Of a stretch of 64,000 nt of DNA, positions 26,961 through 55,429 are shown one piece after another. This DNA comes from Schmidtea nova. Lineage: Eukaryota. The first letter of the stretch is position 1; every line of letters begins with the position of its first letter. The position numbers and the translations under genes are program-made. The notes beneath the pieces are model-generated. The model was given only the letters and a program-made list of their open reading frames with translations. It made no database searches and was not told the origin of the DNA. The stretch is from assembly GCA_044892505.1 (NCBI GenBank), contig CM097883.1, forward strand, positions 334,614,001 through 334,678,000, in the 5' to 3' direction.

Positions 26961-27111
26961 AAAGCTTGTCTACTCTATCTTACTTATTGTCCAATTGCTC
27001 CCTTTCTCATTTATTTTAACTATTTTCTCATTTAAATTAGCAATACCTTTATCAATGAAGGTATCGCTCCAAACTCTGGCAGAATTTGAGATGAGGTAAG
27101 ATTGTAATTCA

Positions 27112-27459
27112 TGCTGCTGTGTTGGTTTGATGTACAACTGAGATCATTAAGATTTTATACGTTAGGGTGATCTCGCCAACATAAAAACATTCCCCCGCTG
27201 ACACCCATGATGTATCCCTAACTACTCATCATGTTGGTGCTGTGTCAACGTTGTGAAATGACAAGGCAGGTGAGCAACCTTTCGGCTACTATTCCCTTGT
27301 TTATTCACGGGTCCACCACTACCGATAGAAGGTGTCTGTGGATTTCTTTCGGTCCCACTTATGCTCTTTTCCATTGTTCTAGGGTGATCTACTCTTAGCG
27401 CATCTGCAGTTTAAATGAATCCGGGTTTTAGTTACATTCGATTCTCAGACATTCCACAA
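27112..27459 (-). repeat. Terminal 348-bp LTR stub (third copy of the LTR 3' end)
   Basis: Matches 29313-29660 and 55436-55783 (one mismatch seen, at 27117); forms the outer end next to the TSD. Confidence 0.92.
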
Positions 27460-28305
27460 GTCAATTAATGAGAACTCTGCTCCCTACGAGATTTATTTTT
27501 ACGGACGAGAACTATGCTCACTATGATGTTGCGTTTTATGACGAGACCTATGCTCACTAGGATGTTATTTTTATGACGAGACCTATGCTCACTATGAGAC
27601 CTATGCTCACGAACGAAAACTCGAAATATCATCTCTCAGTGGTTGCATGTGTTGCTTCGAGATGTTCCTCTCATTGGTCACTTATGCTTCTTCGGAGAAT
27701 CTATTGTCGTGTTTCGTTAAGTCCTATCTTTCAAGAACTATGGGCAAATCCTTTCTCTTTAGGACCCCTTTTATCATTTCCTTTCTTTCAAGGAATTCAT
27801 TTAACCTCGAGTTTTCCCTTTACTCGGCTCATCTACTACACCCCTTTATTCTGGTATCTATTTATCGACTTCTCTACTTGATTTTACTTTATGCGAGCTG
27901 ATTACGTGCCTTTCATCATCTACCACATTTCTCTACTCATCTTACTCATTTCATTGCTTTCGGTCTTTACTGATCAGTTTATCCTCCTATTTTTATAGTT
28001 TTTCTGCGCGCGCCTAAACCTCGTTGAGTTGTCCCTACCTTTCACCCCAACCAAAATATATAAAAAGATCGCATTGGTCCACTGATGCACGATGTGGTGA
28101 TCAGTCACATCACAAGAGTTTTCCAATATCCGCGATTGGATCCCTTTCTACACATCTCGGGTGAGTTGATCAGTTGGTTCCCCCCAATGGGTGCTTATCG
28201 GACTACTCGTGAGTAGCTCATAATTACTTAGGTCATTTTTACCAAATCATTGTTAAACCCTCATAATTTCAACAACAACTGCACTTGTTCAAAACTTTAT
28301 TTCTA

Positions 28306-28764
28306 TTACAAGTACACTGTTATTTTCTCGGATACGGGAAGGTTGCACATAGGACATCGTTCATTTATTTTACATTCATTACAGAATCGAAAATGCCCAC
28401 ACGGCAACAACATTATCTGTATCTTATTCATTTCACAGATATAACACGTCAGATATTGTCTCGTATGTTCGGTTGTTAGTCTTATCCATTCATCGTGTTT
28501 TGTTGTTAACTGTTGCTCTAGCCTGTGGCATTCGATATTCATTTCAGGGTTGTTTAATCTTTCTCTGTACCATTGATATCGTGTTGCGGTATCCACTGGG
28601 TTCTTATTCTCGCTTATGCTCATTATCATTTCGGCTCTTTCTGTGTTGTTTGTCGGCTCGTGATATCCTCCTACCTCGAGTCGTTTTAGCTTTCTCATTA
28701 TTATCTCCGTTGTCTCGTTGTTTGTTTCGAAAAACGTTTGCATTTCTTTTATTTTGTTCTCCAT
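28306..28764 (-). CDS. 152-aa protein with C-terminal IAP-type C3HC4 RING (copy in duplicated leader)
   Basis: CYIC..IMLLPCGHFRFCNEC..RCPMC..ITVYL; identical translation to 54429-54887. Confidence 0.88.
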   Translation of the reverse strand: MENKIKEMQTFFETNNETTEIIMRKLKRLEVGGYHEPTNNTERAEMIMSISENKNPVDTATRYQWYRERLNNPEMNIECHRLEQQLTTKHDEWIRLTTEHTRQYLTCYICEMNKIQIMLLPCGHFRFCNECKINERCPMCNLPVSEKITVYL

Positions 28765-29288
28765 CCCATGAATGAATTCTCATTAATTTTGTTATCGATT
28801 TTTATTTATTTATTTATCATTCCTATTCTATGGTAGCCCTACTGTTCGGTTTTTGCTGTTCTATTTCGCGCCACTGCGTATCCCCCCGTGTTCTTGAATG
28901 TCGCCCCGACATGATCATTGTTAGTTGCTCACACTCATACCATTTTCATGCACACTTTTCAGCATACTTTTACCTTACGTCATGCATACTTTTCCTCACT
29001 CTCATGCTGTTACTCCACATACTATTCATCATACTTCATTTATCCACATATTTTCACATTCACACTTTCATTCTCATGCATACTTTTATCATGCTCATCA
29101 TTTACTTATTTCACACTCATACTTTTATTTATTATTTTCCAACCCGATTCATTCTTGCTTCAGGACCCTCAAACCCTCTGTTATTCTTTACTTTACTTTT
29201 CCTCGCTAAATTCAATTCATCCCGGTTCATGCGCTCTAAGACTATCCGCCGATATCGAATTCACTTTTTCCCACAAAGATCGATTTAA

Positions 29289-29306
29289 TTCCCGGCTGAG
29301 CCCCCA
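29289..29306 (-). promoter_or_regulatory. Second primer-binding site (tRNA-Pro type) behind the 3' LTR
   Basis: Minus strand TGGGGGCTCAGCCGGGAA, 6 nt after the LTR CA end. Confidence 0.8.
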
Positions 29307-29698
29307 AATTTATGCTGGTGTGTTGGTTTGATGTACAACTGAGATCATTAAGATTTTATACGTTAGGGTGATCTCGCCAACATAAAAACATTCCCCCGCT
29401 GACACCCATGATGTATCCCTAACTACTCATCATGTTGGTGCTGTGTCAACGTTGTGAAATGACAAGGCAGGTGAGCAACCTTTCGGCTACTATTCCCTTG
29501 TTTATTCACGGGTCCACCACTACCGATAGAAGGTGTCTGTGGATTTCTTTCGGTCCCACTTATGCTCTTTTCCATTGTTCTAGGGTGATCTACTCTTAGC
29601 GCATCTGCAGTTTAAATGAATCCGGGTTTTAGTTACATTCGATTCTCAGACATTCCACAATCAAACAAGACAAGTCAAATCATTCGTTTACAATACAT

Positions 29699-30298
29699 TT
29701 ATTTACAATTTAATAACACCGAGGGTCTAATCACATTTAGGAGTTCTTGTTCAGATAGACCACTGAGTAAGTCTACTTCTATTCCTAGGCGATCGGCATA
29801 TGCACGTCGCTCTCTCCGCTTTTTCGCTCCTAAGCGATTCCTTCTCTTTGTTCGTTTTGAGCCTGCTGGAATTGTAGCTGTCACTGCAGTAGCTGTAGCT
29901 ATGGTCGATGCATTCTCCGTTTGGGTGCTCGTAGTCACCGCTATCGTGTCTACCCATCGATTAAAGGTGCTTGCTCTGATCCCGGGGCGCAATTGCTCGG
30001 TGATGAAATCTTGGGTCGACACCTTTAAGTAATTGGCCAGCTCTAATTTCAAGGCTGCAACCTCTCTGGCATATTCATCAGCTACTCGTTCCGCCCTGTA
30101 TCTAGCTTGCAGGATGGACTTAACTCTCTCTGGGTTAAACCATGTCGTCTTGATCCTCTGGTGCTCATCATTCAGCTGTCTTAACCGACTCTCCAGAACT
30201 CGTGAACGCGCCTTATGTTCTCGCGCCTCTTGCTTGAAATCTCTGTCCTTGGTTTCAGTCATGTCTGTAAATATATCATTAATTGTGGTATATGTCAT
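29699..30298 (-). CDS. LTR-encoded 199-aa coiled-coil protein with basic tail
   Basis: Intact sense ORF, identical in both LTRs; similar to ORF 2061-2585. Confidence 0.7.
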   Translation of the reverse strand: MTYTTINDIFTDMTETKDRDFKQEAREHKARSRVLESRLRQLNDEHQRIKTTWFNPERVKSILQARYRAERVADEYAREVAALKLELANYLKVSTQDFITEQLRPGIRASTFNRWVDTIAVTTSTQTENASTIATATAVTATIPAGSKRTKRRNRLGAKKRRERRAYADRLGIEVDLLSGLSEQELLNVIRPSVLLNCK

Positions 30299-30450
30299 TT
30301 GTCTGATCTCTCGGTCATCCTGTCGCCATTAAACAACTCCACCTTATCATCATGCTATTCTTATACACTCGAAAACAAAACAAGACCGTTCTCACACAAA
30401 TACATATATTTTTATATCTACGACAATCATTCTAGTTCGGGTTGTGTTGA

Positions 30451-31086
30451 TCAACTGAATGCTCTCAATTCCTGATCCGCAGTATGTTCATCGCGACGAA
30501 TTCCATTCTCCCAATACATTTCCGGGGCTGGGTTCCAACTCAGTTTATCTTTGTAGATAAACACCTCCCAGAGGCGAAGCTCCTCGAGCTCGGGGTGTTG
30601 TTCTAATGACACGCTTCCTGGCGCGTTGGAGTAGGCGAAGACTTCCTCAGTGTAGCGACACCGAGGCCTGTCTAACAGCGTGTATCCTAATCGATGAAGA
30701 GCCCTTCCCGTCATCATTTCATTACTCAATAACCAACGGGGTCGTTGCTGTCCATCGAGGAATTGATAGAACCATCGGTCGGTTCTTGGTTCGGCAGGGT
30801 CCAAGGTGGACATCCAATCGGGGTCTCCTTCCCATCGTAATTGTATCGTGAAGGCGCAAGCCGGAATATCGGCGGCTGCACTCATATGATGTCTTATCCA
30901 CCGGCGTAGGTGTCGACGTGCAATTTCGCTAATTCGGCGGGGAGCTTCTGTTTCTCCCTCGATGGTAGGGTTCCTCTTTGGCCGGATGATGGAACGGGTA
31001 CGTCGTTTTCTCTGGATGACATAATCCTCCACGTTCATATGTCGAGAGTCGATCAGATCCGTTTGGTATCCTTCTGTCTTTATCAT
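30451..31086 (-). CDS. LTR-encoded protein of unknown function (about 211 aa from the likely ATG at 31086; ORF track calls it from 31236)
   Basis: Intact sense ORF in both LTRs; ATG preceded by CTAAC...TTATCTTCAG|CCACATG. Confidence 0.7.
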   Translation of the reverse strand: MIKTEGYQTDLIDSRHMNVEDYVIQRKRRTRSIIRPKRNPTIEGETEAPRRISEIARRHLRRWIRHHMSAAADIPACAFTIQLRWEGDPDWMSTLDPAEPRTDRWFYQFLDGQQRPRWLLSNEMMTGRALHRLGYTLLDRPRCRYTEEVFAYSNAPGSVSLEQHPELEELRLWEVFIYKDKLSWNPAPEMYWENGIRRDEHTADQELRAFS

Positions 31087-32715
31087 GTGGCTGAAGATAA
31101 GAATTTTGTTAGTGTGATAGATTTGTCGGGTGAGCACAATTATTTGTACCCGTCGACCTACTCGACTTAAGGGTGAAACTCTGTAGGCTTCAGTCGGTGG
31201 TTCAGTGTTAAACCGGCCCGATGTTCGAGATACCATGTAGGTCGTATTTTATTATCATTGGTGGTGAATGCATTTATTCTATTGAGTATACTAGTTGGCC
31301 ACGCATAATTCATCGTGCCGTTTATGATAATTTATTTTTCATCTACGATGATCACTTGACCATTTATTATGTTTGAATGTTATTATCTGCGAGACATTTT
31401 TCGTTTCTATTCACAACAATCATGCTCAATCACTCCTCAGGTTTTATCTCCAAACATCATCCTCAACTACCAATGATCATCTTATCCGGGGAACACGCTC
31501 AATCCCTTACTCATACTAATTTGAGACTGGTCATACTATCGTCTCTTATTATGGGTGTTTACCTCTCATACCTTTCGAGGATTGCAAACGGGTGTTGAAA
31601 AAACATTGTGATTTATTATTAACCTCCGACACTGGTACTATTCGTCTCTTAACTTGTGTTACTTATGGCTCGCATGACCCTACTCTCGTCGTCATCAATG
31701 TCCCTGGTTACATATACCTACCGCTCGTTACGGTATTGCTACGACGTATATCGTTCGGGCTCAATTATCTTTACCTTTCTAGATATCCTATGTGCATTTA
31801 ACCCCTTTCCGTTTACTAAGTATTTAGTAAACCTATGGTCCCGCCGCATCAGCACCTCACATGGAAATGTGTTGTGCTGAGAGGCCCAAGAATCCGTCAG
31901 GCTGTTAGGCCTCCGGAAAACCTTATTGATTTTAATATGATTATAAAATTATGAGGGTTTAAACACATCAATAACATAACTCCAAATTACCTTTTATTTC
32001 CAATTCGGTTTTACAATGTCTTCCGTAAAAGTGACTGTTGTACTGATTTACCTTCAGTAAAAATGGCATTGTCAAATACTGATTTGACTTCAGTATTTAT
32101 ACTCAACCGGTGTTGTTGGTTAGCCAATCAGCATCGAGTATGTGTGTATGTTTGCTTCATTTTTTCATGTTGTCGGCTTTTTGCTGCCTAACTTAACTCA
32201 CCGATTTATTTGGTTAATCATGCGGTAAGTTTATTTTTTGTATGATTTAATTTTTATTTGATTTTGCTTTAGCTCTTCGGTGACATCCGCCCACGCGCTG
32301 TCATATTCAGATTTTATCTGCTTCGCATGAGTGAGTTCTTGAGTTTTATTTTGTTTTGGTTAATACTTTATTTCTTTTAGATGTTGCCGCTCATTTTGTT
32401 ACGCTTTGGTGTTGGTAATTTATTTTGTTGTTATTCTGTTGTAAATTTATTTTATTGATTGTATATTATTTTCAGATGCTGCTCGATTTGGCTGGCCCAA
32501 CATCACTCGGGGTCCCCTAAAATTGCGTCCCGCAATTACATGCATATACCTACATCAACATACATAAAAAGTTCGTGACAGAACTTACATGCAAAACCGC
32601 ATAAGGTGGTAGCTTTCATACGCATTTATACAAAGTCACACATTGTCATTGTCATGTTGATATTGTTTTTAGTTTATACACAGTTCAATGTTTCTGGCTC
32701 ATAGGGGTTCGATTC

Positions 32716-33240
32716 TCAGGTCCTTTCACTGGTTGACTGCATTTCGTATCGGGCTTGGATTTGTCGTAGATGGCTTCTCATTCTTTGTTGGGTTTTTGCT
32801 TCTCTTTTGGCGCATCTACACATTATCATTTGTTGTTGTTTGAGGCTTCTGATTCGGTACAGGGTATAGGTAATCACGATGATCAGGATGATTGTCAATA
32901 TTGTCATTGTGACTATTCCGACGATGATCCATCTGTTTCGGATTTCGGATTCGATTTGGGTTTGACCTTTGATTGGCTTTAGATGATCTTGAAATGTTCT
33001 ATGGACTTCTCGGATCTTCTCGATTTGATTGAATAGGGTTTGTAAGGGCTTGCGATGATCATGACTGATCCGCATTTGTCGGATTAATTGTTTCAAGTCT
33101 TCTCTGACTTCATTTAATTGTTTTTCAATCTCTTGGGATATCTCGTTCGACAGGGCTCTTTGTATTTCGGTTGTTGAACAGTTCATTATTGTTGTAGTTA
33201 ACATAATCGTTAGGATTGGTAGGGTTTTGAGCCAGTTCAT
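32716..33240 (-). CDS. 174-aa predicted type I membrane protein (signal peptide, helical ectodomain, TM, basic tail)
   Basis: MNWLKTLPILTIMLTTTIM N-terminus; WIIVGIVTMTILTIILIIVITYTLY hydrophobic segment; basic C-terminus with CRC. Confidence 0.8.
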   Translation of the reverse strand: MNWLKTLPILTIMLTTTIMNCSTTEIQRALSNEISQEIEKQLNEVREDLKQLIRQMRISHDHRKPLQTLFNQIEKIREVHRTFQDHLKPIKGQTQIESEIRNRWIIVGIVTMTILTIILIIVITYTLYRIRSLKQQQMIMCRCAKREAKTQQRMRSHLRQIQARYEMQSTSERT

Positions 33241-33314
33241 TTCTGATTATTCTACTGATTAATACCTGTTACATCGATTTGTACATTTCTTACACACGGA
33301 TTTTTCGCCTCTTT

Positions 33315-34475
33315 TTACACGCCCGTTTCCTCTGGTTCATGGAACCCTTCATCTTGGAGCTCCATTGGTGGTGGTGGTATAAACGGTAACCACACCACTC
33401 TACTTCTCCACATTGCGATTTCATCTTGATACGTTCGAGAGATTTGTATCTCTTCATCTAGCAGATACTCCATATAGTCTGATTGTTCGCTCAGAGTTTC
33501 AATTTGTCTTTCCATCTCCTCCACTTTTCTCTTCAGGGCTTCTACTTCTGTAGGTTCGGTTTCTACTTCTATGGTTTCCTTCTCTGCTTTCAGGGTTATT
33601 ATCTGCTGTTTCAGCTCCTCATTTTCTTTCGTCAAATTCGTTATGTTTTCCTCATAAGCTCGGTTTGATTCCGCATGTCTTTCTTTCACTGCTTTCAACT
33701 CCATTTTCTTTTTGGTCACTACTCCTTGGTAGCCATTTACGTCTCTTTCCAGACTTTCTTTTTCCCTGATCAACTTTTGTCTTTCCGCTTCCTCTTTCTG
33801 TCTAATACCTCGCATTTCTCCATTTATCATCTGTATTTGCCATTGCGTTTTCTTTAGTTCCTTTGCCTGTTCTCGAATAAATCGCTGTCGTTTTCGACTC
33901 CATTCTTTGTTTGCTTGTTCTTGTCGCTTTCTCTGTTCCAATTCCTCTTTCAATTCGTCTATCTCTTGATACAATTTCCAATCTTCGCTGTGTGCTGTCC
34001 TTCTGATTATCTCTTTGGCTTCTTTATACACTCGTTTCGACTCCATCTTCCAATGTCTCGCTTGAGCCTTGATTGCTAGTATTTTTACCTCCATCTTTTC
34101 CTCTTGTTTCTCCCTCTCTTCTCTTCGCGTTTTCATCATATTTTTATAATGTTCTGCTTGTTTCCTCATCAACTGATAGACCTCTTCTATCTTCTGTCGA
34201 CTTCGTACATTCGTTCCTTTTAGCTTCTCTATTTGTGTTGTCAGTTGTATCATCTCTTTATTCACTTCCTCGAGTTCTAGTTGATATAGCTCCATTCGTC
34301 TTTCGCATTTCAGTTTCTCGTAGAAATTGTTTGTCATCACTTCGTGTAATTCTCTGGTTCTTTGTTCTACTTCCACTTTATATCTCTTTTCGATTTCTCT
34401 TTCTATTGCTTCTCGTTCGTTCGCCATCTCGTTTCTCGTTTCATCTTCGATTACATGTTCATTTGCGTTTTCCAT
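33315..34475 (-). CDS. 386-aa long coiled-coil protein
   Basis: Intact ORF, E/K/R/Q-rich heptad character, no recognisable catalytic motif. Confidence 0.8.
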   Translation of the reverse strand: MENANEHVIEDETRNEMANEREAIEREIEKRYKVEVEQRTRELHEVMTNNFYEKLKCERRMELYQLELEEVNKEMIQLTTQIEKLKGTNVRSRQKIEEVYQLMRKQAEHYKNMMKTRREEREKQEEKMEVKILAIKAQARHWKMESKRVYKEAKEIIRRTAHSEDWKLYQEIDELKEELEQRKRQEQANKEWSRKRQRFIREQAKELKKTQWQIQMINGEMRGIRQKEEAERQKLIREKESLERDVNGYQGVVTKKKMELKAVKERHAESNRAYEENITNLTKENEELKQQIITLKAEKETIEVETEPTEVEALKRKVEEMERQIETLSEQSDYMEYLLDEEIQISRTYQDEIAMWRSRVVWLPFIPPPPMELQDEGFHEPEETGV

Positions 34476-34564
34476 TCTGTAATTTACAAATTTACACTTG
34501 TTATACTATATGTTTATTGTTGTTGTCGATTTTTATACTTTATTTACAGGGTCGTTCACTCTGA

Positions 34565-35977
34565 CTACTCTAACAATCCTTTCGTTGACTTCGTGTTCAT
34601 CACTGTTGTACTTGTTTTCTTTTCGATCTCCAACTCTACATATAAGTTGTCGTCGTACAACATTTCCCACATTGTTTGGTGTGGTATGAATTTTGGTTCT
34701 CCCGTCGCTAATGAACATTCTGTGGTTGGTCTTTTGTAAGCTTCGTGCTTACCATCAATTTTGAATACTCTCGCTATTGTTTCTTTCGAGTTTTTCACTC
34801 TCATTATAGCCTTTGTTTCTAGTGGCCATTCTAATATGTCGTCGTAACCACCTTTACACAACGCAAAGAATAATGACACATGCGTTTCCTTTCCTGATCC
34901 ATCTCCATTTGGATAAATTCTCATCCGGACTTTGTATCCGTTTTTCCACAGATAGAATGGTGGACTTGTTACCGACACTTGACTTCCTGCTTTTGCTGCT
35001 GTGAACTTTTCGTTGAAGTTCTTGATTTTCCATATATATGGTGCAACAGGTAAACTCTCGATATCCTCCGCATCTCGTATCCACATTTGATGTCGCACGT
35101 TTACTTCTTTTACCAATGTCTCTATGACTTTGATTTTCTCCATCATTTTCTCTCTGGTGAGCTCGAATTGCTCTCTCGTTTCCAGTAATAACTCCGTCAT
35201 TATCCTCTGAGATTCAATTTCTTTTCCCAGTTTCTGTATGGTTTGCTCCATTCCGTTCAAATTTTCTGTTAACATCTCGGCGTGTTGTACCGTTTCCGTT
35301 TCCAAATGCTCTTTCATCTCTTTGCTCGTTTTCTTTACTGCACATCCTTGTTTACTCCATACGCACTTTCTTGGTCTTGATTCGCATTGTTCCCAATGTT
35401 CTCTCAACATCACTTTTTCTCCGGTTCCACAATTACTTGGACAAATTCCTCTGAATTTTCCGCACACTTTCTCTTCTGCTACGTTGAGATGTTCTGTTTC
35501 GATTACTTCTCTCGTCTCTCTTTGTTCGCAGTATTGACACTCTATTATCTCTGCTTTGCACTCCTCCTTGTGATTTTTCGACTGCTTGATGGTTATCATC
35601 TGTTGACACTTTTCACATATCACTTTCTTGTTTTCGCATTTTCCCAGATGTTGTCTTAGCTCGATTATTTGTCCTTTCCACTCGCATGGTTGGTTTATAC
35701 ACTCTGTTTTTATCTTCCAGATCTCCTTTTGTATTGCTTTGTCTGGTTTAGTCTCGTTGATTAGTAGTTTATCGTCACACTCTGGACACTTTCTTGTCTC
35801 ACTTTCACTGATTATTTGTAATATACACTTGGTGCACATCCTGCATCCACATTCCGTTTGCCTCGGTTTTAACAGTAGATTTTTACACTTTACACACGTC
35901 ACATTTACTCCCCATTGTCGATTTTCTCTTCTTAGAATCTCGATCGTTTGGTAATCCGCTTCGCTTTCTGCTCTCAT
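34565..35977 (-). CDS. Full-length intronless TRAF-family protein (RING, TRAF zinc fingers, coiled coil, MATH/TRAF-C)
   Basis: CVKC..LLKPRQTECGCRMCTKC..CPEC; CEWKG..HLGKC; YIWKIKNF..SPPFY..GYKVRMRIYPNGDGSGKETHVSLFF..YDDILEWP. Confidence 0.96.
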   Translation of the reverse strand: MRAESEADYQTIEILRRENRQWGVNVTCVKCKNLLLKPRQTECGCRMCTKCILQIISESETRKCPECDDKLLINETKPDKAIQKEIWKIKTECINQPCEWKGQIIELRQHLGKCENKKVICEKCQQMITIKQSKNHKEECKAEIIECQYCEQRETREVIETEHLNVAEEKVCGKFRGICPSNCGTGEKVMLREHWEQCESRPRKCVWSKQGCAVKKTSKEMKEHLETETVQHAEMLTENLNGMEQTIQKLGKEIESQRIMTELLLETREQFELTREKMMEKIKVIETLVKEVNVRHQMWIRDAEDIESLPVAPYIWKIKNFNEKFTAAKAGSQVSVTSPPFYLWKNGYKVRMRIYPNGDGSGKETHVSLFFALCKGGYDDILEWPLETKAIMRVKNSKETIARVFKIDGKHEAYKRPTTECSLATGEPKFIPHQTMWEMLYDDNLYVELEIEKKTSTTVMNTKSTKGLLE

Positions 35978-36067
35978 TCTACAACAATATTTACATCAAT
36001 TTCCCCATATTTTTGATTTTTTCTGGTTCTTTATTTACACGTATTTACACAGTTTTCCGCTTATTCA

Positions 36068-36418
36068 CTATACATCCTCAGTTGAATCTGGCTCTGGATA
36101 CACGTCTATCTCATTTACAATCCAGCTCGTCCAACTATCCGGTATCTCTTCCTCTTCATGTCTCGTTAATCGGTCAATTTCCTCTGCTTGCCAGTTGTTT
36201 ACTTCATTTAATGTTCGATTCTCGTTCTGTAATTCGTTTATCTGTAGTTGTTGGATCTCGATTTTGTTCATTGCTTCGAAGTTACAGTTATAACTCTCGG
36301 TTAATAATTGCGTTTTGGCCGTCAACTGGCTCTGTAATTCATTTACTGTTCTGGCTAGCAGGTCACATTGTACTTTCCATCTTGTCATCATCGACATCTC
36401 TGTATTTTCTTGATTCAT
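36068..36418 (-). CDS. 116-aa short coiled-coil protein
   Basis: ATG-to-stop ORF co-oriented between pol and TRAF with short spacers. Confidence 0.65.
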   Translation of the reverse strand: MNQENTEMSMMTRWKVQCDLLARTVNELQSQLTAKTQLLTESYNCNFEAMNKIEIQQLQINELQNENRTLNEVNNWQAEEIDRLTRHEEEEIPDSWTSWIVNEIDVYPEPDSTEDV

Positions 36419-36541
36419 CGTTTTCCTAGATTATATACATCATTCTCTTTTTTCTGGTTTTATGTTTAATAATATTTATACCCATACGTATACGGTTATG
36501 CATTGGTTTTTACACTATTATTTACACTCATATTCCACCCT

Positions 36542-39500
36542 CTATACAATCACCACTGGTTTTCCTTCGTACAGTTCTTCGTCCTCGATCTGTACCCACA
36601 TCTCTTCGTGTTTTGATCGTCTTTTCAGTTCTTCTCGTACTGCTTTTGGTAGTTTTATGTTGTAGTTTGTGACCTTTACGTCCGGCCATTTTACTGCTAT
36701 GGTCTTATTCCTCATGCCATATCTCCAACAGACTATCATGATCGTTATCAGTGGTATACACCCTATGAATACCCCCATGCTGATTAATCCCATTATTGTT
36801 TTTCCAATGTTCATCTTCGGAGTTTCACTTTGGTTTATCATCACGCCATATTGACCTTTCCATTCCGCTTCCCATTGTTCGTATTGTTGTTGTCTCCGTC
36901 TGACTTCTTCGATCACTTTCTCTGGTTCCCATCTTTCTTGGCGGTTTGGTATTGTTTCTTCCGTCTCGGTTTGTTCTCTCTTCACACTCAATTCTCGGAA
37001 TTCTAACTTTCTGATTCTCCTCGTTATCGTTGTGTTCCTTGGCGTGTAATAGGTGTCGCACCTTTCCTGTGGATTTCCTTGTGCGTCCACTTCTTCGATT
37101 GCACACACTTCGTATTCTGCGTTTGTTTTCAACTTCCTCATTTCTACCTCGATTATTTCTCCTTTATCATTTGATGTCTTTTGACAGTTTCGTGGGGACT
37201 TTCCCATACTGTTTGGCATTAATGTCCAACAGATTTCTAGGACCTTTTTATGGATCTTCCATATTATCAGAGTCGTTGATTCTGGTTCGTTTTCTATTGT
37301 CGTCCCTTCTGTTGTTGTCTGTTGAACTCTCTGACTGTTGGTTGTCGTGGTCCTTCTTGACTTTCTTTTCCTCTGTCGACTTCCTCCCATTTCAATCGTT
37401 CTCGTACCGTTAATTTGCTCTGGCGTCTTGTACAGTTTGCACTCCAGGCTTCTTTGTATTATTTCTCTTATTCTTCGGATTACGCAAATTTCGTAGGCTT
37501 GTCCGACTTCGAATCCATTTAGTTGAAACGGGATTCCTCGTTCTCTCGTTTTGCATTGCGGTAGTACGTGACTGGTCGATGCTCCGATGTATTTTCTCCA
37601 ACACATCCCAATTGTTCTCCGACCAATGTTTTTTATCTCTACGGTTACTACTTCATTCGCAATCGTTTCTTGATCTTGTTTCTTTCTTTTTGGGAATTCA
37701 ATTATCTCCTTTGCTTGGAACACTTTACACTCGCTTGTGCCTGGTCTGTTTCCGTTTGCTGCTTTTTCCATGAGGCATAGTTCACATGTTTTCTCTGTTT
37801 CCATTTCAGTTATCTCGATTTCCTCGTTTGTCTCTGCCTCTCGACTTTCTCTTGTTTCGCTGATTCCAATTACTTCATTGTTTCGTCCCCAACATCTTCC
37901 ATTCGTTGTTCGTTGGTCTTGGACATTTACTAACGTCATCACGCTGATATCTATGTCTTCCATGATTCTCTTAATGAGGATTAATATTAATGCTACACAT
38001 ATCAATTCTGGTTGGAATGTTAATTTTCTCGCTGGATTTTTGGTTATTCTTTCTTTCTCTGTTCGGTTTCTGATTCCTTCTTCTGCTTCGGTTTGATTCT
38101 TCCCTTTCTCTGATTCCACTTCTGTTCTTCCCGTTGTCTCTTCGCTTCTTTTCCCAATCCATTTCTGTATTTTCAGCGCTTCTGTTGCTTTATATAATTG
38201 ACATGCAGTTACTTGAGGTGCTTTTGGTTCTCCTCTCTGCTTTATTGCGCATATTATGTATGACTTTTCTTTCTCCAACCCTTTGATTGGGATGACGTCT
38301 CGCTTCAAATCTGACAATATACACTTCAGCGTATCGTTTTTCCTCAGGTTTTCTTTCCAGCATATTCTTTCGTATACTTCGTTTCCTCTGATTATTTCCA
38401 GCGTGACGTATTGTTTCTTGGCTTCTCCTTGTCCGATGATTGTTATCAATATCGCAATACACAACATTTCTGGTCTCAAAAGTAGACTTCCTGTTCGTTT
38501 TCCATAGTTCGTACTTTCGTCTTTTGTTCCACTGTTTTCTCGTTCTTCGGCTTCTTCTTTTTTGTCGTTTTTCGTTGGCTTCGGTTCTTCTTGTCTTTCT
38601 TTTTCATTATTCTCTGTTCTTTTGTTGTCATTGTCTTCGTTGTTCTTTTCGTTGTTACTTTTGTCGTTGAAGTCTCTGTAACCACCCCCTGGTCCTTTGA
38701 AAATGTCGTCCTCGACATTAATTTCTTCAATCAATCTTTCATACGCTTGGACCGCGAGTGTGCTAGACTCGAATTCCCGTATTTCCATGTCTTTTGATGG
38801 TTCTATGTCTTTTAGTCTACTTTGCTTGATCGCTTCTTTGGCATTTGCCCATTCATTCACATATTTTCTGAACAAGTCTTTCCATCTTCCCATTCGTTCC
38901 TGTTCCTTTGAGTTGTTCGTAAATTTCAAATCTCTTCTCTTCAAGAATTCTTCTACTATCTCTGGCTTTTTGTGTCTTAATAACGCGCTTCTGATACACC
39001 AATTCTGATTCTGTTCCATATGGTCATTGATCTTGAACACTGGTTCCTTGGTTATCGGATTCGCCCATGTTAGTAATGCTCTTGTTTTCTCTATGTCGTG
39101 TATCATTACTGTTAGACTGAAGTTCTTTACGTTATTCGCCAGGTATTCGATATCGTCTTGTTTCTTGATGGACTTTATGAACTTGATCATCTCGAAGTTG
39201 TTCCACTGTATTGCGATGTCTATGATGGAATTATTCTTTCCATTTTTCCCTTCGATTTTTGTTCCTGCTTCGTATAACTCGTTTAGCACTTTGCAGTTCG
39301 TCTTCTTCCTCGCTGCGATTATCATGATTGTATCTCCGTTATCATCAACCGTGTTCATGTCTGCTTCGCATTTGACCATCGCTTTCGTTATTTCCAGCAC
39401 TTCGTTTTCTTTCTTTCGACGTAATGCCCAGTGTATCGGCAATCTCCCATCCTTTGATAATAGGAATGCTACTGGCATTTGATTTTTGATCGTTTCTATG

Positions 39501-42500
39501 TCACTCTCGTTATAATCTCCTTGTGCGTATCTGTGTAATTTCTCTGTAATTGCTCCTAGTATCTCCAACGAGTTTTTATTCTCTTTGAATTCCGATAATC
39601 TTTCTTGCGCTTTTGCTACGATTGCGTCTAATCTCTCTTGATAATCGGCTTTTGCATTGAACAACACTGCTTTGCTTCTTATTTGCGTTTGCATCTGTTT
39701 CATTCGTTGGTCTTGATACACTGCTTGTCTGAAGAACTGTCCATATTTCAATGCTTCTATCAGCTCTTTATATCGCTTGCTTATTTCTTTGTGCTGCGTT
39801 TGGATGTCATAGAAATGTTCGAAGCTCATATCCGGATTCCATTGTTTATCACACCATCTCTTGATTAATCCGATTAATTCTTTTTTTCTGTCTTCCAACT
39901 TGTATTCTCTTGGGTTTTCGCTAACCCGTAACGTATCTCTCGCTATCAACACTGCAAGTGTTTTTGGATCGTATGTTACCTCTAGTAGATGTTTCAGTAA
40001 CGCATTTTCTCCCCTTGTGAATACTTCATTACAATCTATGACCCATGAATCTCTTTCTGGTCGTTTCCACTTTAACAGTATTCTCCAGGTTTTACTGTTT
40101 CTTACTCCGATTGCTTGTTTCATGATTGATCCTCTGGTTATTTCATCGATTTCCCACGTGGCATTTTCCGTGATATACTTCAGTATTCGGTGATTCGCTC
40201 TGTCAATTGCATGATTCAAGAATGTTCGTCCTTCTTTATCTTTTGTCATCCAACTTGATCTGGTGTTTCCGAATAGTTTGACTATTTCATCATCTCTTCC
40301 ATGAATCGTCATCATCATGAGTGGAGTGATTCCTTCCCAATTCACTTTGTCAATTTCTCCTCCACCTTCGAGTATCATCTCTACGATCTCTTTCACTTTT
40401 TCGTTTCCACTGTGCTTGATTGCATTGTGCAACGCTGTGTTACCGTCTTTGTCTTGTAGATTCAATGTTTGAGGGATTTCCTCTAGCAGCGTTCTTGTTA
40501 TTGGATGCGCTGATCTGTCTTTTGCATACTCCATTACATTTTTCCGCACTTCTGCCAATATATTGAAATCGAGCCACCATTTCCATTCTGGTATAAGTTC
40601 TCTGGTCTTCTTTGCCAGTTCTTTGATATCTATTGCTTCTCTTCGGTTGTCTTCTAGACTTGTTAGCGGCTTTTGTTGTACTCGCAACATACTGATTCTC
40701 GCCGTCTGTGATCTTGTCATCACCCGTTTCTCTGGTGATAGAGTTGCTGTCTTTGGTATTTTTCTGCATCTACATGCATTCACGTATATTGGTCTTACCA
40801 CTGGATTGTTCACCAATCGTACTCTCACATTATTTTCGTTTACTGTTGTTATTTCGTATGGCCCTTTGCCTGGTCGTTGGAGTTTCTTGACTGTACCGGG
40901 TATTATCTCTGGTGTCTCGATGATCACCCAATTTCCAACTTTTAAATCATGTGCTTTCACATTCTTTTTCTGATCATGTAGATCCTTGTAACTCTCTTGA
41001 TAGAACTTGATGTTCAGTTCCGCCGTTTTCCAGATTTCTTGCATTCTTTCTTTGAACTTCGTCACGTAATCGTCAACCTCCATGTACTGTGATAATGGTG
41101 GTTGATATTCTAAATCAATCGGTAAGTTGCAATCTCTTCCGTACATCAGTTGGAATGGACTTAGCTTTGTTGCCGCATGTATTGACATTCTATATGCCAT
41201 TAAACACAGGTTTATATATTCGTCCCAGTCAGTCTGATGTTTGCTGACGTAATTTGACAACATGCGTATTAGCGTTCCATTGAATCTTTCTGTTTGACCG
41301 TTCGTTTGTGGATGGTATGGGGATGTCCGTAATTTCGCAATTCGGAAGTAATTCGTAACTTCGTCCAATATTTCACTCATGAAATTTGTTCCTTGATCCG
41401 TTAGGATTTTCTTTGGTGTTCCGTATCTGCAGCATATCTCTTCCACCAATATTCTCGCGACTGTTTTCGCTTTTTGATCCGGTATTGCGAACGCTTCTGG
41501 GAACTTTGTTAGGTAGTCCGTGACTACTAATATGTACTGATTTCCTTTTAAACTTTCTGGCAATGGTCCAACTACATCCATTGCTATCGTCGCCATTGGT
41601 TCTGCAGGTATTGGCATAGGTTTTAGTGGTGTTTTCCACTTCGTTCCGACGTTCTTTCTTGTTGCACAGGTTAAGCAGTTCTTTATCCATTCTTTCACAT
41701 CATCTTCCATGGTTGGCCAAAAATACTTTTGTCTCAATCTCCCGATTGTCTTTTTCGCTGACATATGTCCGCCTAATTTTCCGTCATGATATTGAGTCAT
41801 GATTTCCTTTCGCCTATTCGCAGGTAAGCACATCAATCTTCGTTCTCCATCTTGTATCAATAACCATCCTTTTTCCATCACATATCTATGTTGATATTTC
41901 TGCATATGTTCGCGCAACGTTTGGTTCTTGCCGAATATTTCTATTTCCCTTTCTTTCAAATACTTGCTGATCAATCCCAACTCCTCGTCTTCGAGTTGAT
42001 CTTTCCTTAATTCGCTGAAATCCAAATCCTCCGCTATTAATGCACATATTTTCAGAGCGTTTAGGTTCACCAATTCTGGGAATGTAAATCTTGACATGCA
42101 ATCTGCGTTTGCATTTGCTTTTCCTGCTTTAAACTTTATGAATGGCGAGTATTCCTGTAACTGCATCGCCCAACGCATCAATCTACTTGACGATTCTTTA
42201 TGTTGGCCTAACCATACCAATGGTTGATGATCCGTCGTGATATATATTTCATGACCCCACAGTAGGTATTTGAAATGCTTGATTGCCAATATTATCGCAT
42301 AGGCTTCTCTTTCCGTGACTGAGTAATTCCTTTCATGTTTCCTGAATGTTCGACTGTAGTACCCAATTACTCTTTCCTTGCCTTCTTCATCGAATTGGCC
42401 TAGTACTGCTCCTGCTGCGTATCCACTTGCATCTGTTGCCAACAAAAATGGCTTCTTAAAATCTGGATGGACCAATATTGGTGCTGTAATCAGTTTGTCT

Positions 42501-45500
42501 CGTAATGTCTCAAATGCTGCTTGTTGTTCTTTTCCCCATATAAACGACACATCTTGTCTTACCAATTCTTGCATTGGCTTTGATATTCCTGCATAGTCCT
42601 TGATAAACTTTCGATAATATCCACACAATCCCAAAAATTCTTGTATTTGCGTCACTGTCTTTGGTGGTGGACATTCTTTGACTTTTTCGATATTCCTTGG
42701 ATCTGGTTCTTTTCCTTTTGCTGATACAATGTGACCTAAGAATGTCACTTTCTCTTTTGCCCAATCGCACTTTGACGGCTTCAATTTCAGTTTCCACTGT
42801 CTCAATTTCACGAACACATTTCTGATATCTTGCAGGTGATCTTCGAATGTTGCGGAGTAGATCAATAGATCGTCAATATACACCATGCATTGTTTTATGC
42901 CATGTGTTACGAAATTCATGCATCTCTGGAATGATGCTGGCGCGTTTGTTAACCCAAACGGCATTTTCTTGAATTGGTACAGATCTCGTCCGATTGTAAA
43001 TGCTGTCTTCTCTTTATCCTCGTCTTTCATTTTGATCTGCCAATATCCGCTTTTTAAATCCAGTGACGTGAAATAGGCTGCTCCTTGTAACGTCAACAAC
43101 ATTTCGTTTATGTCTGGCAGTGGGTACGTATCTCTTTTCGTAACTGCGTTCAACCGTCTGTAATCGATACAGAATCTCTGAGTTCCATCCTTCTTTTTCA
43201 CCATCACCACCGGGAATTGCCAGGGTGAGCAACTGGGTTCGATGACCTCTGCATCTAACATCTTTTGTACCTCTTCTTCTGCCACTGCTTTTTGAGCTTC
43301 TGCCAATTTATATGGTCGTAATGCGATTGGCGTTTCGTCCGTCAACGGTATCGTATGTAATGTTACATCACATGTTCCCAAATCCAAATCTGATGCTGCG
43401 AATATATCTTTATATTCCATCAACAGTTTCTGTAACTGTTCTTTTTGTCGTTCGTCTAACAACACACTGTCGATTTTCCATGGTGATTCGCCTTTGCTTT
43501 TCTCATTCTTGTCTGGTATTTCGATTTCGGACATGGGTGTTAATTTACCCAATCTCTCATTCTCGTATATTATCTTGTCCTCTTCGTCGAAATTTACCAT
43601 ATTAATTGGTATCTCACCTTCTTGGTTTATGGTGACCAGTTCTCTTGCCATTGGTAATTCTATCTTTGCTTCGAACTTTTTACTTGGTTCGAATATCATA
43701 TCCCCCTTTATTGTTGAATCGATCTTGACATAGCACATCATTTCGTGCCTCGCTGGTACTACTATTTGTTCTGCACTTGCCACTTTAACTTTCATTCTGC
43801 AAATTTTTCCTGTTCTATCTTTTAATTTCATTGCTCCTAGATCGATTACGATCTCCTTGAACAGGTCTGGCATCAGGTCAGTTCCAATAATACATGGTAC
43901 ACTCAGCGATGGTATTACAGCGATGTACGTGTTGATTTCTGCACCTCGATGCTTAATTTTTACAAACCATCTTCCGGCTACTTCTACTGTCTCCTGACTG
44001 CACGCGATTACATGTACGTTTGTCTTTTCTATTTCTCTTTGGTTTTTCTCTGGTATATAGTTGATGTCGATCGCCGAAATATTCGCGCCTGTATCGATCA
44101 TGGCTTCAATTTCTCTTCCGTTTATTTCTACGGCTGTTGTTAAAATCGGTCCCATATTTGTGGACATAACTGCTATCGTGTGCGTGTCTTCCAACGAGTC
44201 TACACTTCCACCTCGTTTTACTTTGCATCCTTCTGGAATTATCGGGTATATACTGGTCATCGGCATCATCTGCATCATATTCGGCTTCGCTTTGTATATC
44301 GGTTCGTTATACATTGACTGAGGTGGAGCGCTGTATCTCCAATTCTCAACTGCACTCTTTTCGTTATACTGTAGAATCTGGTTTATATTCGCTTGTCCTC
44401 CTTGATCGTCATCGTCATCCTCATTGCTTGAGTCATCCTGTGTTCGATATCCCCTCACTCTTTCCCATAATCCTTTCCTTTCTTTCTTTAGTTGTCGTCT
44501 TGCTTGCTCGTCTTGCATTATCTTTTTGAATTTCCTTCCAACATCTTCATTTGTTCCTTTCATTTTCGCAAGTATCTTCAACAATCTTTTTATTCGATGA
44601 ATGTCTTTTGAGTGTCCATGCAACACCATCGTTTTCGCAAGGAATGGTAAGAATCCTACTACCATTTTCCAATTCACTTTCTTTTCTCTCTTGTAGATGT
44701 CGAAACACGCTAACATTTGCGTTATTATCACTCTGACGATTTGTATTATCAATATAACACCCAGTATTTCAGCCATCATTTGTCCGAATATCAGGAATCT
44801 TCCCCACATTGCCTTCATCATATTTTCCGTGGCTTTCTTGAAATGTGCCGGTGACAACAGCAGTTCGTAATTCGGTCCTTCTCGATAATTCGTTCCTCCC
44901 GTTATCGTTACGATATTTGACAGTAATGCTTCTCTTCTTGCCGGGAATAATATATTCTGCCTTGCCGCTTCTAAATCTTTTGGACTATAGATTCCGTTGT
45001 TTGAGACATCTACGTCGCTGAACTGTCTATCTTTCGATAACTGCATCAGTTCAAATTCTCTTGGTGCTAATACTTCGGTTCTTCCTGGGAACATAACCCA
45101 TTTGCCATCTGGTTTCTGATAAAGCGGTCCGTACGCATTACTACAGTTGAACGGATTTGGTTCAAACCCTGGTGGATTGATGATTCTCGTCACCGGTTGA
45201 ACATATCGTACTTTTCCTTTGTAATCGATTTCTAGTTCGTTTGTACATTGTCCAGGTTTCAACTGCGTTGTTGCTGCTAGCGATGCGTGTGTCTTTTCGC
45301 AAATGTATACATACATTGCTTCTCCAACCACTCTTCCGAAATGTCCTTCTCTCAGTGGTAATAACGGCATCGCGCTATCTGGATTCGTAATCGCTACGGC
45401 CAACTTTGTCTTTAATATTTCCCGATTCAGTATACAATCGTTGTTTATCAGATCGTAGTACACTTTTTGCAATGAGGCTTGACCTCTATGGAATAAGAAA

Positions 45501-46774: not shown

Positions 46775-47195
46775 ATTGTATATCGTATACGAGATTGCTA
46801 CCAGATATTTGCTGTCCGTCTGCTCCGTTAAGTAGTCTTTTTATTAACATCGTGGTTCCTTGCCAATCCAGATGATTCGATTTTGTTTTGGCTTTTATCA
46901 ATTCTGGCATAATCGGTGCTATTGCATTGTGTAGCATCCTTGCCTTTGTACTAGGTTCGTTTATCCTCCACAAATTCTTTAATTCCGGGTCGATTATCGC
47001 CAACACATCCATTATCGTTTTGGTGAGCCATTCTTCTCCTTGACAGACTTGATTCTCCTCTTTTCCTCTGATTTCTGCGATTTTATCCAGTTTCTTCAAG
47101 CAAATCTCCCATTGCTCTTGTCTCCTTTCTTCCCTTGTCTTTGGGATTGTTGTTGCTGGATCTATCTTTGGTCTTCCTCTTGGTCGTTTCTCCAT
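46719..47195 (-). CDS. 158-aa ORF with AT-hook (KRPRGRPK) and N-terminal half of a Bcl-2-like domain; +1 shift joins it to the polyprotein
   Basis: Overlaps the polyprotein frame; removing one A from the A5 run (plus strand T 46838-46842) fuses the two. Confidence 0.6.
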   Translation of the reverse strand: MEKRPRGRPKIDPATTIPKTREERRQEQWEICLKKLDKIAEIRGKEENQVCQGEEWLTKTIMDVLAIIDPELKNLWRINEPSTKARMLHNAIAPIMPELIKAKTKSNHLDWQGTTMLIKRLLNGADGQQISGSNLVYDIQFANAKPRESEVKSDGKTY

Positions 47196-47256
47196 TCCAG
47201 TTCCGGTTTCTACAAATCTCGTTGCTCTTCCTGTTTCTTCTGTAACATCTCTTCCT

Positions 47257-48459
47257 TTATTTCGCTCGTTGTTCTAACCATCTTTCCATTTCTTGGGTAA
47301 ACTGTGGTTGTTCTTGCTCATCTTCCGAATCGTTCACCATTTCTATGACTACCTCCTGTTCCACTCCTTGATCGTCGATTTCTGCTGGTGACGTTATTGG
47401 CATCTCTATTATTCTGTCAAAAATATTCGCCGTTGGTTTTTGAGTCAACTTCGTTAATTCTTCTATCGCTTCGTCACTGTCTGTTAATATCTCATCCACA
47501 TCATACGCTTCTGGCGGTGTTCTCTCTCTCGTTTTGATTGGTGTTGTCCTTGCTTGTCCCGAACTTGTTCCTGGGGTCATTGTTGACTTCATCGGACTTG
47601 GTGTACTCATGCTTCCTTTCGTTTTCTTTTCCTCTTTAAACTTCAGTGGTTGACCCACTATTTGTGCCACTGTTAACGTATTCATTAGATCCAATTGCAC
47701 TGGTGTCAGCCAGATTTCCAAATTATTATCCAACGATCGTCCTTGATGTTGCAGGTGGAATGGTAGTTCGTACATCAGTTTCTCTTTAATACTTTTCACT
47801 TTCTCTGTTAGCATCACCCAAAACTCTTCTTTTCTTTGATTCGGATACATTATCCTCAAATGTATTTTCTGTGGCGTTTCCTCCGTGAATTCTCTGTTTC
47901 TCCACTTTTTTATTACATCGTCTAGTTGCTCTGGACACCACTCATTAACTCTCTTGTATTCTGCTATCGCTTTGGCTACTTTTCTCAAGTTCGTTATGTC
48001 TTCTCCATTTGAGATTATGAATTGTGCTAAGCCTTTTATTGTTTGTCTTTTTCCCCGAGTATTTCCTCTCAACAGCTCGATCAATTCACTCGTTTTCTGT
48101 TTCTCCAATTCTGCCCATATTACTGCAGTTTCTGGTCCGTCTAAGTCCGTTGGTAGTAACCTCCTTGTTACCATACATATCCGTTTCGTATTCGGTTCAT
48201 ATCTGTCTTCTCCTTCTGGATCTTCTTCATACACGCCTCTTTTCACTTTCCAACATTTCTCTTTGTTATCCCATTGTTTTTCTACTGGCGTCAGTCGTCG
48301 TCTGTTAAGATCCAATTCTCCCAATATGGTCTCCCATTCTGGCTTCATCTGCCAGTTCCGATAGATTTCTACTATCTGTCTCAACTTGCGCATAACGTCC
48401 TCTTGTCGTTGCTTTCTCCCTTCTTCATCTCTTGGTGTTGTTCTTTGCACATCATCCAT
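47257..48459 (-). CDS. 400-aa ORF containing a ubiquitin/SUMO-like domain and an S/T/P-rich tail
   Basis: KIHLRIMYPNQRKEEFWV..KVKSIKEKL..LQHQGRSLDNN..TLTVAQIVG at about 47654-47869; in frame with the upstream ORF across one TAA. Confidence 0.7.
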   Translation of the reverse strand: MDDVQRTTPRDEEGRKQRQEDVMRKLRQIVEIYRNWQMKPEWETILGELDLNRRRLTPVEKQWDNKEKCWKVKRGVYEEDPEGEDRYEPNTKRICMVTRRLLPTDLDGPETAVIWAELEKQKTSELIELLRGNTRGKRQTIKGLAQFIISNGEDITNLRKVAKAIAEYKRVNEWCPEQLDDVIKKWRNREFTEETPQKIHLRIMYPNQRKEEFWVMLTEKVKSIKEKLMYELPFHLQHQGRSLDNNLEIWLTPVQLDLMNTLTVAQIVGQPLKFKEEKKTKGSMSTPSPMKSTMTPGTSSGQARTTPIKTRERTPPEAYDVDEILTDSDEAIEELTKLTQKPTANIFDRIIEMPITSPAEIDDQGVEQEVVIEMVNDSEDEQEQPQFTQEMERWLEQRAK

Positions 48460-48525
48460 TCTGATGACATGTATTGTCTGATAATTATCCCATATGCCGA
48501 TTTTATACGCTCGTCTTTTGTCACG

Positions 48526-49275
48526 TTAATTCAGTAGATGTTCTTTGTATTTTATAGCGATGTCATCCTCGAATTCATCTTCCCGTTCTCGTTGTAATAT
48601 CGTCTCATTGATGACATCTACTATTTCTCCCACTTTACTATCTGGTATTACCTCAATTTGTCTTGTCTCTTCGTTCGGTAATCTCACAGTAATCTTCAGA
48701 TCTGATACCTCTCCTCGTTTAAACATTTCTTTTCCCATCTTTGCAATTAGCTTGTCCGTTTTGAAATTCGAATGCCTCGTTTGACTTGTATCTCGTATGT
48801 TCTCGATACACTGTTTCAAATTCTCATACTCGCTTTTCGTCAATTCCTTTCGATGTTTCTTGATTTGTTGGATGATCTGTTCTATCATCGTATTCAAATT
48901 CTCTGCTAAGATTCTTTCCTTTGCCTCTAGCAACTGAGGTTTTATTCTCATCTCATAACACGTATTCGCTTCTTTGACGATTCCTTGTAAGTTCTCTTCC
49001 TTCTTGGTGTTGCATATAGATAACGTTGTTATTTCTCCTGGCCAGATGCCTGTATCTATCATATGCGTTCTTTTTCTTACCAATCCGTTTTCTGAGTATA
49101 TGAATTTGTCTTTGTACGAGCTTCCCAATCTGTCCTCAACCCATCGATATATTCCATCCGTCATTGGGTTCTTTATCCAGATTCTCGGTGAACACTCGTT
49201 TATCCATATTTGTATTACGTATTCGTTCAGTGGTTCTTTCAATAACTTCTCTATGAACTCTTGTATTACTCTCAC
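48526..49275 (-). CDS. 249-codon ORF after gag; ubiquitin-like domain runs across its stop codon
   Basis: LKITVRLPNEETRQIEVIPDSKVGEI..IKYKEHLLN*RDKRRAYKIGIWDNYQTIHVIR; GTG start overlaps the gag TGA. Confidence 0.65.
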   Translation of the reverse strand: MRVIQEFIEKLLKEPLNEYVIQIWINECSPRIWIKNPMTDGIYRWVEDRLGSSYKDKFIYSENGLVRKRTHMIDTGIWPGEITTLSICNTKKEENLQGIVKEANTCYEMRIKPQLLEAKERILAENLNTMIEQIIQQIKKHRKELTKSEYENLKQCIENIRDTSQTRHSNFKTDKLIAKMGKEMFKRGEVSDLKITVRLPNEETRQIEVIPDSKVGEIVDVINETILQREREDEFEDDIAIKYKEHLLN

Positions 49276-51704: not shown

Positions 51705-52408
51705 TGTTTTACTTCCTGGTCTTGTCCTCTTCGCTGTTTTTCTTTCTTCTTCTGTTAGGATAGGTTCTGTATCGACCTTTTGTTGCGCTAATTTAGCTGC
51801 TGCTTTTGCCTTTTTTGTTGCTTTTCTTTCTGCTTCTGTTAGGATTGGTATTGTACCTGCCCTTGTTTCGCGTTCCGCAATTTTGTCTATTCCTCAACTT
51901 CTTATATTCTCAACTGATTTTCTACTTCGCTTTTGCTTTGCTTCTTCTTTGATTTGTTTCCTTGGAATTGCTCTGACTGCTAGATTGCTTTGAATTGCTT
52001 GATTGATTTGTTTCCTTAAAACAAATAATCACTTACACGATACGTCCCCGTTATCGTGTTTCTCGTCCCTCTCACGGGTGTAGTCATAATTCATGAAGAT
52101 CCCCATTTTTCCCATTTCCCTTGATTTTAAGTCTATTTAAATTATCTATGCAGTCGTATCAATTATCTATTCTTTATCAAATACACCAATTACTTTTCCC
52201 CAGTTTCCCAATTACTTTGTCGCTCAGCGCTCTTATTATCCCCTTTACTTTTCTCAGGCTTCTCTGGCTCTGAGTTCAAATTTCCCCTTATCTGCCGACT
52301 ACTCTGTTTCTCAACTATTCGCTTTATTTCTTATTCACACTGCGTTTACTACTTCATTTCGATTCTCATCTCTACTCATCTTTAATTCTACTGACATTTC
52401 TCGTTGGC

Positions 52409-55411: not shown

Positions 55412-55429
55412 TTCCCGGCTGAGCCCCCA
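55412..55429 (-). promoter_or_regulatory. Primer-binding site, tRNA-Pro type
   Basis: TGGGGGCTCAGCCGGGAA matches the canonical tRNA-Pro PBS TGGGGGCTCGTCCGGGAT at 15/18 positions; 6 nt after the 5' LTR. Confidence 0.82.

Follow-up and report, generated by a model that had tools for sequence, protein, structure and literature searches.

A TRAF gene in the 3' cassette of a giant LTR element

The window analysed here, 64,000 nucleotides of the Schmidtea nova genome (GCA_044892505.1, contig CM097883.1, positions 334,614,001 to 334,678,000), contains a Burro-type Ty3/gypsy LTR element in which a whole TRAF gene follows the env-pol-ankyrin frame and precedes the 3' LTR. Strand-skewed sequence of 40% GC spans approximately 27 to 58.6 kb of the window and holds the following features, all on the minus strand:

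27112..58625 (-): whole insertion, Burro-type Ty3/gypsy LTR element of 31,514 bp, delimited by copy comparison
58626..58629 (-): target-site duplication TGAA, right copy
55436..58625 (-): 5' LTR of 3,190 bp, TG...CA, ends set by six other copies
55412..55429 (-): primer-binding-site-like TGG tract, 6 nt past the 5' LTR
54429..54887 (-): leader ORF of 152 aa whose C-terminus holds an IAP-type RING but which has no BIR; it recurs at 28306-28764 in the extra tail
49272..51446 (-): Gag part of the polyprotein with CCHC knuckles, from domain search
46719..49164 (-): three frames (212, 400 and 158 aa) that form one continuous polyprotein segment in related copies
36542..46735 (-): 3,397-aa frame with mononegavirus-type fusion protein (Env), protease, RT, RNase H, integrase and ankyrin repeats
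36068..36418 (-): 116-aa accessory ORF that opens the 3' cassette and is conserved in every TRAF-bearing family
35978..35999 (-): conserved acceptor-like tract whose TTGTAG-A end abuts the TRAF ATG, a putative splice acceptor
34565..35977 (-): TRAF gene, 470 aa, with C4C4 RING (28-67), TRAF zinc fingers, coiled coil (approximately 229-306) and MATH domain (314-451)
33315..34475 (-): 386-aa coiled-coil accessory ORF
32716..33240 (-): 174-aa accessory ORF with a hydrophobic N-terminus and a membrane segment predicted from sequence
29313..32502 (-): 3' LTR, differing from the 5' LTR at 4 sites
27112..29312 (-): extra 3' tail consisting of a second 1.85-kb leader and the closing 352 bp of an LTR
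27108..27111 (-): target-site duplication TGAA, left copy

Read along the element strand, the LTR is followed by the leader ORF with its IAP-type RING, Gag, three segments of unknown nature, the Env-like part, protease, RT, RNase H, integrase and ankyrins, and the ankyrin end gives way to a 3' cassette of four ORFs (116 aa, TRAF, 386 aa and 174 aa) before the LTR. The TGG tract past the 5' LTR presumably matches a tRNA as a primer-binding site. LTRs of 5 kb were considered and rejected, as six other copies put the LTR end at 3.19 kb, and the IAP-type RING ORF therefore lies in the leader and not in the LTR. Two ORFs of no known family lie within the LTR (55822-56421 and 56574-57359, corresponding to 29699-30298 and 30451-31236 in the 3' LTR), the 199-aa one having homologues in other element families, and tandem arrays of 19-nt and approximately 84-96-nt units occupy the 5' leader (52399-53656). 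The extra 3' tail, which lies inside the target duplication, may be what is left of a second tandem unit, or else an aberrant product of reverse transcription. Elsewhere in the window, an intact 637-aa hAT transposase frame with BED finger and dimerisation domain (22634-24547, plus strand) is GC-richer than its surroundings and has a 55-bp perfect-arm hairpin nearby (21451-21561).

A preliminary description of the locus had placed the TRAF gene in a mobile retroelement. The LTR pair with its few differences and the TGAA duplication agree with this and indicate a young insertion, and 4-bp target duplications also flank all three other copies whose both ends were read. On the other side, the polyprotein of this copy is split: young as the copy is, the 5' third of the polyprotein is broken by three frame changes and one stop. 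A single frame of at least 5,076 aa is present in 26 of 113 relatives selected by their RT.

The element follows the plan of Burro/GYPSM1, the giant gypsy-like retrotransposons of planarians, which in the available excerpts of PMC6431247 exceeds 30 kb, has long LTRs, a CCHC Gag, a mononegavirus-like Env in frame before protease-RT-RNase H-integrase, ankyrin repeats, and both MATH_TRAF_C and IAP-type cargo. Burro elements with MATH_TRAF_C cargo, also in an accessory ORF, are thus already in print; one relative has a 5,140-aa ORF1 and MATH_TRAF_C in an accessory ORF called upstream (PMC6431247), and a 5,140-aa frame also occurs in one of the families described below (family B). However, those excerpts name the MATH_TRAF_C domain only, whereas the gene described here is a complete RING-finger-coiled coil-MATH TRAF, and it lies 3' of pol in a four-gene cassette, unlike the arrangement as printed.

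That the gene encodes a complete TRAF, as first proposed from the letters alone, is borne out. It forms one frame without a stop across the whole of its 470 codons. Pfam places MATH at 314-451 (E 9e-27; MATH_2 at 94 bits against a cut-off of 32) and zf-TRAF at 170-224, at its cut-off, while the RING at 28-67 scores below the curated cut-offs (21.9 versus 26.9 bits). Sequence matches in the PDB comprise the MATH domains of TRAF5/3/1/2 and the RING-fingers of TRAF6/2/3. AlphaFold, given a 100-row alignment, predicts a MATH sandwich preceded by a long helix (229-306, pLDDT >95), the predicted coiled coil (TRAF-N), at an overall pLDDT of 91.9 and pTM of 0.54; folding from the single sequence gives a pLDDT of 40. 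Foldseek ranks TRAF1/2/3/5 domains top for the predicted structure, and a word-index protein search returned seven distant TRAFs only. The RING reads ECGCRMC, with Cys at the usual His position just as had been reported, making it a C4C4 variant; each of its eight zinc ligands is present in at least 52 of 53 element copies. All TRAF modules are retained in the element protein, and the RING is the most constrained of them.

The MATH domain has diverged in a particular way. At 411-413 it reads HEA in place of the serine-rich stretch of host and vertebrate TRAFs, and it departs at two near-invariant columns as well (L386 and S422). The serine-rich stretch of TRAFs has a role in receptor binding. 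Because this stretch and the two columns have diverged, the element TRAF probably binds other ligands than host TRAFs do. The gene also resembles the element in base composition (A 0.42, G 0.25, T 0.18), matching pol and gag, unlike 13 host TRAF frames, in which T amounts to 0.26-0.34. Since its composition is that of the element and not of host genes, TRAF would seem to have long been resident there.

TRAF as selected cargo of six element families

A genome search with TRAF yielded 90 scored matches of 3,270 candidates, nearly full length and all at 95% or more, five of them with a stop, and 1.5-kb element flanks are common to all 29 other copies that were fetched. When family copies were instead selected by RT, TRAF was found downstream in 106 of 113 (83 from the TRAF match list, 20 of 28 fetched and three from earlier loci) and was not seen in seven within the 5 kb fetched. 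Its dN/dS comes to 0.085 for the 30 TRAF matches that scored best, a sample biased low, and to 0.117 for 23 copies that were picked by RT and lie outside the top list, a sample biased high; over all 53 copies it is 0.104, with 0.053 for the RING. Such values tell that the protein matters, not what it does. TRAF is a fixed cargo under purifying selection in Burro-type elements.

The alternative raised in the preliminary description, a TRAF unique to this copy, does not hold: beyond the many copies of the window's family (family A), five further families (B, D, E, F and G) have the same cassette with a complete TRAF in it. Families B, D, E and F came to light through searches with RT and with the protein P0039; their TRAFs occupy the same place, with protein identities among the four of 46 to 52% (52, 51, 47 and 46%, in no order of family), and family G, with a TRAF at 35% protein identity, was met at a flanking locus. 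Exact genome matches to the RING motif of families A-F number 543, those to a MATH motif 511 and those to the family G RING motif 1,189, with no control match in any case; the RING motifs together give at least 1,732 matches, counts for which a sample of the matching places was inspected. Family C (L061-L064) carries a MATH domain only, between Gag and Env inside a 4,706-aa polyprotein as described for Burro1, so that a Burro1-like family coexists in the same genome with that of the window, which has no MATH inside the polyprotein and whose only IAP-type part is the BIR-less RING. A RING ORF is found in the leader of family C.

In family G, the most abundant, an IAP ORF with BIR and RING follows TRAF directly, approximately 0.3 kb downstream, in 19 of 20 copies, so that the majority of TRAF-bearing element copies would have an IAP gene next to it, and no match to gag, env, RT or integrase was found in any of five copies. 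Both genes are under selection, with a dN/dS of 0.195 for TRAF and 0.142 for the IAP, the latter biased low because the copies were picked by IAP similarity. Pfam recognises one BIR in this IAP, and a word-index protein search with it returned zero matches. The family (L220:7966-9420; L197:841-1920, on C2 of G000 near 264.44 Mb; L231-L265) is a non-autonomous derivative of Burro that retains remnants of protease and ankyrins, and its LTR pairs are more than 99% identical. In each of families E and F (L205 and L223), the one full-span copy inspected likewise lacks RT-RNase H-integrase and keeps TRAF, and its protease-to-ankyrin junction resembles that of family G.

On whose behalf does this selection act? 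Perhaps the animal uses the element TRAF for stem-cell survival or regeneration, so that host selection keeps it. Such a mutualism has a precedent in the B-IAP of Burro1, a BIR-RING protein reported to shield stem cells against apoptotic death (Lee et al. 2026, Dev Cell, as cited in excerpts of PMC13465017), and would suit an RT-less family in which TRAF and IAP have stayed under selection across more than 1,100 copies. However, there is no sign that inserted copies are protected: TRAF is unbroken in 89 of 113 RT-selected copies (hand tally) against 87% expected from polyprotein decay, for which 26 of 113 copies unbroken over 5,085 aa were taken as the basis, although a few host-used copies would not show in such counts. 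Moreover, private TRAF variants are relaxed (ratio 0.34) relative to shared ones (0.12), as expected for selection on replicating lineages. We therefore regard host benefit as unlikely; as unbroken TRAFs are no commoner than polyprotein decay predicts, selection likely acts during element replication and not on inserted copies.

Host TRAF genes and the origin of the element TRAF

Why planarians have an expanded TRAF family is unexplained in the accessible text of PMC6109357, PMC7586133 and PMC8807557, and the preliminary description had suggested that part of this expansion might consist of element-borne copies. Among the top 150 TRAF-MATH profile matches of 2,419 candidates, at least 73 are host loci, being not of element type by frame and place (a hand count, with the genomic context read for about half), and 63 of these lie at C2:405-455 Mb. 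This region (L031-L060 and L170-L177) is a large host TRAF/MATH cluster with many tandem arrays, and several of its TRAFs have their RING encoded 1-3 kb upstream, in an exon-like frame of its own. The suggestion is right insofar as at least 1,732 element matches, set against 73 host loci, could inflate gene counts. It does not account for the host expansion itself, which is real and, in our trees, phylogenetically separate, since the clade of element TRAF and MATH sequences contains none of the 24 host loci. Counts of TRAFs in genomes and transcripts, as well as RNAi designs, should accordingly split element copies from host genes, which the motifs and the tree allow.

In these MATH trees, the element TRAFs, the polyprotein MATH of family C and two unnamed proteins, P0039 and P0157, form one starred clade (98/93, 97/96), and Dugesia japonica TRAF-2A and Dendrocoelum lacteum TRAF-2, -4 and -5, four named planarian TRAFs, group with the host non-element genes; a full-length TRAF tree was computed in quick mode. 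Long branches and A-rich composition may help to group the element rows. Raw identity had favoured an origin of the polyprotein MATH from TRAF-2A (51-52% versus 42%), and two separate captures, with this MATH domain derived from the host TRAF-2A clade, were considered and rejected (AU p = 0.0085).

It had been proposed that the element TRAF, which is intronless, is a retro-captured host gene. Capture from the host TRAF family is supported by its triclad relatives. The nearest named full-length relatives are triclad TRAFs. This family, with D. japonica TRAF-2A, D. lacteum TRAF-2/-4/-5 and Smed-TRAF-2A/B among its members, has the same architecture, length, C4C4 RING and third-zinc-finger insert, and its host orthologues likewise form a single open frame. 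Intronlessness, by contrast, does not argue for retro-capture here: six host TRAFs outside elements are likewise complete within one frame (448-486 aa), and it was rejected as an element-specific sign. The His-to-Cys exchange in the RING was rejected in the same capacity: Cys occupies this position in all eight host RING-bearing TRAFs (13 frames aligned, five without RING) and in 18 of 156 database proteins (87 have His and 51 no matching RING there), the named ones being triclad TRAFs and three echinoderm TRAF3-like proteins. As far as the sequences go, single frame and Cys RING do not mark capture; they tie the element TRAF to the triclad family. From this family it nevertheless differs in its identity of approximately 30-34%, separate clade, element-like composition and diverged MATH binding stretch.

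The TRAF was thus likely captured once, long ago, from the planarian TRAF family. A donor gene was not found, the sister of the element clade among host TRAFs does not resolve, and no gene with more than 34% identity to the element TRAF exists among the host loci examined. Searching the genome with P0039 revealed no host orthologue (93 matches, of which 12 were examined, 11 being element-borne and one a known host gene), and a metagenome scan for P0039/P0157 DNA gave seven loci, none with a match to an element protein except TRAF. Could TRAF instead be a passive passenger, a recent retro-copy of a host mRNA without function for the element? Its lack of introns would fit, but the dN/dS of 0.10, together with selection on TRAF in family G, refutes this, as do the spread over six families down to 35% identity, the element-like composition and the distance from every host locus examined; we give this view practically no credence. 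Two host loci bear traces of elements: a 4.2-kb host tandem unit with a MATH exon contains an 80-codon env-like fragment with 33% identity to the element (L173), and a Burro LTR-like fragment lies between two convergent host TRAF genes (L073-L074).

Proposed role and route to expression

What might the element gain from a TRAF? We propose that TRAF, a fixed selected cargo likely captured once, is likely an adaptor and ubiquitin-ligase scaffold that damps death or innate-immune signalling together with IAP-type proteins in element-expressing cells, a reading to which we assign a probability of roughly 0.55. The element TRAF would form trimers, its RING would act as a ubiquitin ligase, and it would partner with the IAP-type proteins of the elements; damped death or immune signalling would then keep element-expressing cells alive, which would benefit element spread. 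We favour a role in survival or immune damping because the elements carry IAP cargo, because mammalian TRAF2 trimers recruit cIAP via BIR1 (excerpts of PMC6262405), because of the role of the Burro1 IAP, and because RNAi against host TRAF raises cell death (excerpts of PMC7586133). Family G encodes TRAF and BIR-RING IAP side by side, reminiscent of TRAF2 and cIAP1/2, and shares with Burro1 B-IAP a captured cell-death gene in a Burro element. The parallels have their limits: the element IAP has one Pfam BIR and the pairing is known from gene adjacency, and compared with B-IAP, TRAF is a second gene class, known here from sequence. A BIR-based partnership cannot apply in cis in the window's family, since the only IAP part there is the BIR-less RING.

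It is also conceivable that the element TRAF is a decoy that co-assembles with host TRAFs or out-competes them and so blocks anti-element immunity, with neither an IAP nor ligase activity of its own. The predicted structure still has the coiled coil and the MATH fold while the stretch presumed to bind receptors has diverged, mammalian TRAF heterotrimers exist (excerpts of PMC6262405), and family C keeps MATH alone inside the polyprotein. However, a pure decoy would not need a RING, the most constrained part of the protein and one kept in six families, and we therefore consider a decoy distinctly unlikely. Alternatively, TRAF may serve the life cycle of the element, in the ubiquitin-dependent processing, assembly or release of particles and not in signalling, given that the element also has genes for an Env-like fusion protein and for several accessory proteins and that MATH can sit within the polyprotein. 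Yet TRAF is kept in family G, where gag, env and RT matches are missing (although it could act in trans), and the IAP cargo points towards the control of cell death; the chance of such a role seems slim.

With this gene, what Burro elements are known to carry grows from a MATH domain to an entire signalling gene that is under selection and paired with an IAP, and the element TRAF opens a direct RNAi and biochemical test of how Burro elements handle cell death. The literature searched yielded no complete RING-bearing TRAF in these elements, nor any account of selection on it, of its occurrence in six families or of a pairing with an IAP, and PMC6431247, in the portions accessible, is the only source there linking TRAF/MATH to these elements; Lee 2026, Grohme 2018 and supplements, which possibly list Burro domains, were outside its scope.

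Because it lies behind a 15-kb frame, TRAF needs its own mRNA. The simplest reading of the tract before its ATG is that of a splice acceptor: the 22 nt are identical in 49 of the 50 copies where they could be located (53 examined), with synonymous sites differing by 17%, and families B, D, E and F, at approximately 50% protein identity, have a comparable tract ahead of TRAF. Moreover, a YAG lies within the 10 nt preceding all four cassette ATGs in family A and all four in family B (8/8), as opposed to 91 of 368 control ATGs, and the cassette spacers, of approximately 75-125 nt, carry a conserved YAG before each ATG, as read in DNA. Flatworms are known for spliced-leader trans-splicing and for operons with spacers of up to 300 nt (excerpts of PMC12582326). 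TRAF would thus be made from a sub-genomic mRNA whose splice junction lies at the AG immediately ahead of its ATG, formed either in cis or by spliced-leader trans-splicing. Going further, it is possible, though we hold this only tentatively, that the giant elements of planarians carry an anti-death ubiquitin module of TRAF and IAP, a counterpart of TRAF2-cIAP, in an operon-like, splice-processed cassette, one so valuable that an element lacking gag, RT and integrase could reach more than 1,100 copies with both genes still under selection, and that this module feeds stem-cell survival. The cassette spacers of the window copy (36542-36418, 36068-35977, 34565-34475 and 33315-33240) hold five of the element's seven TGTAAATA motifs, in an operon-like layout.
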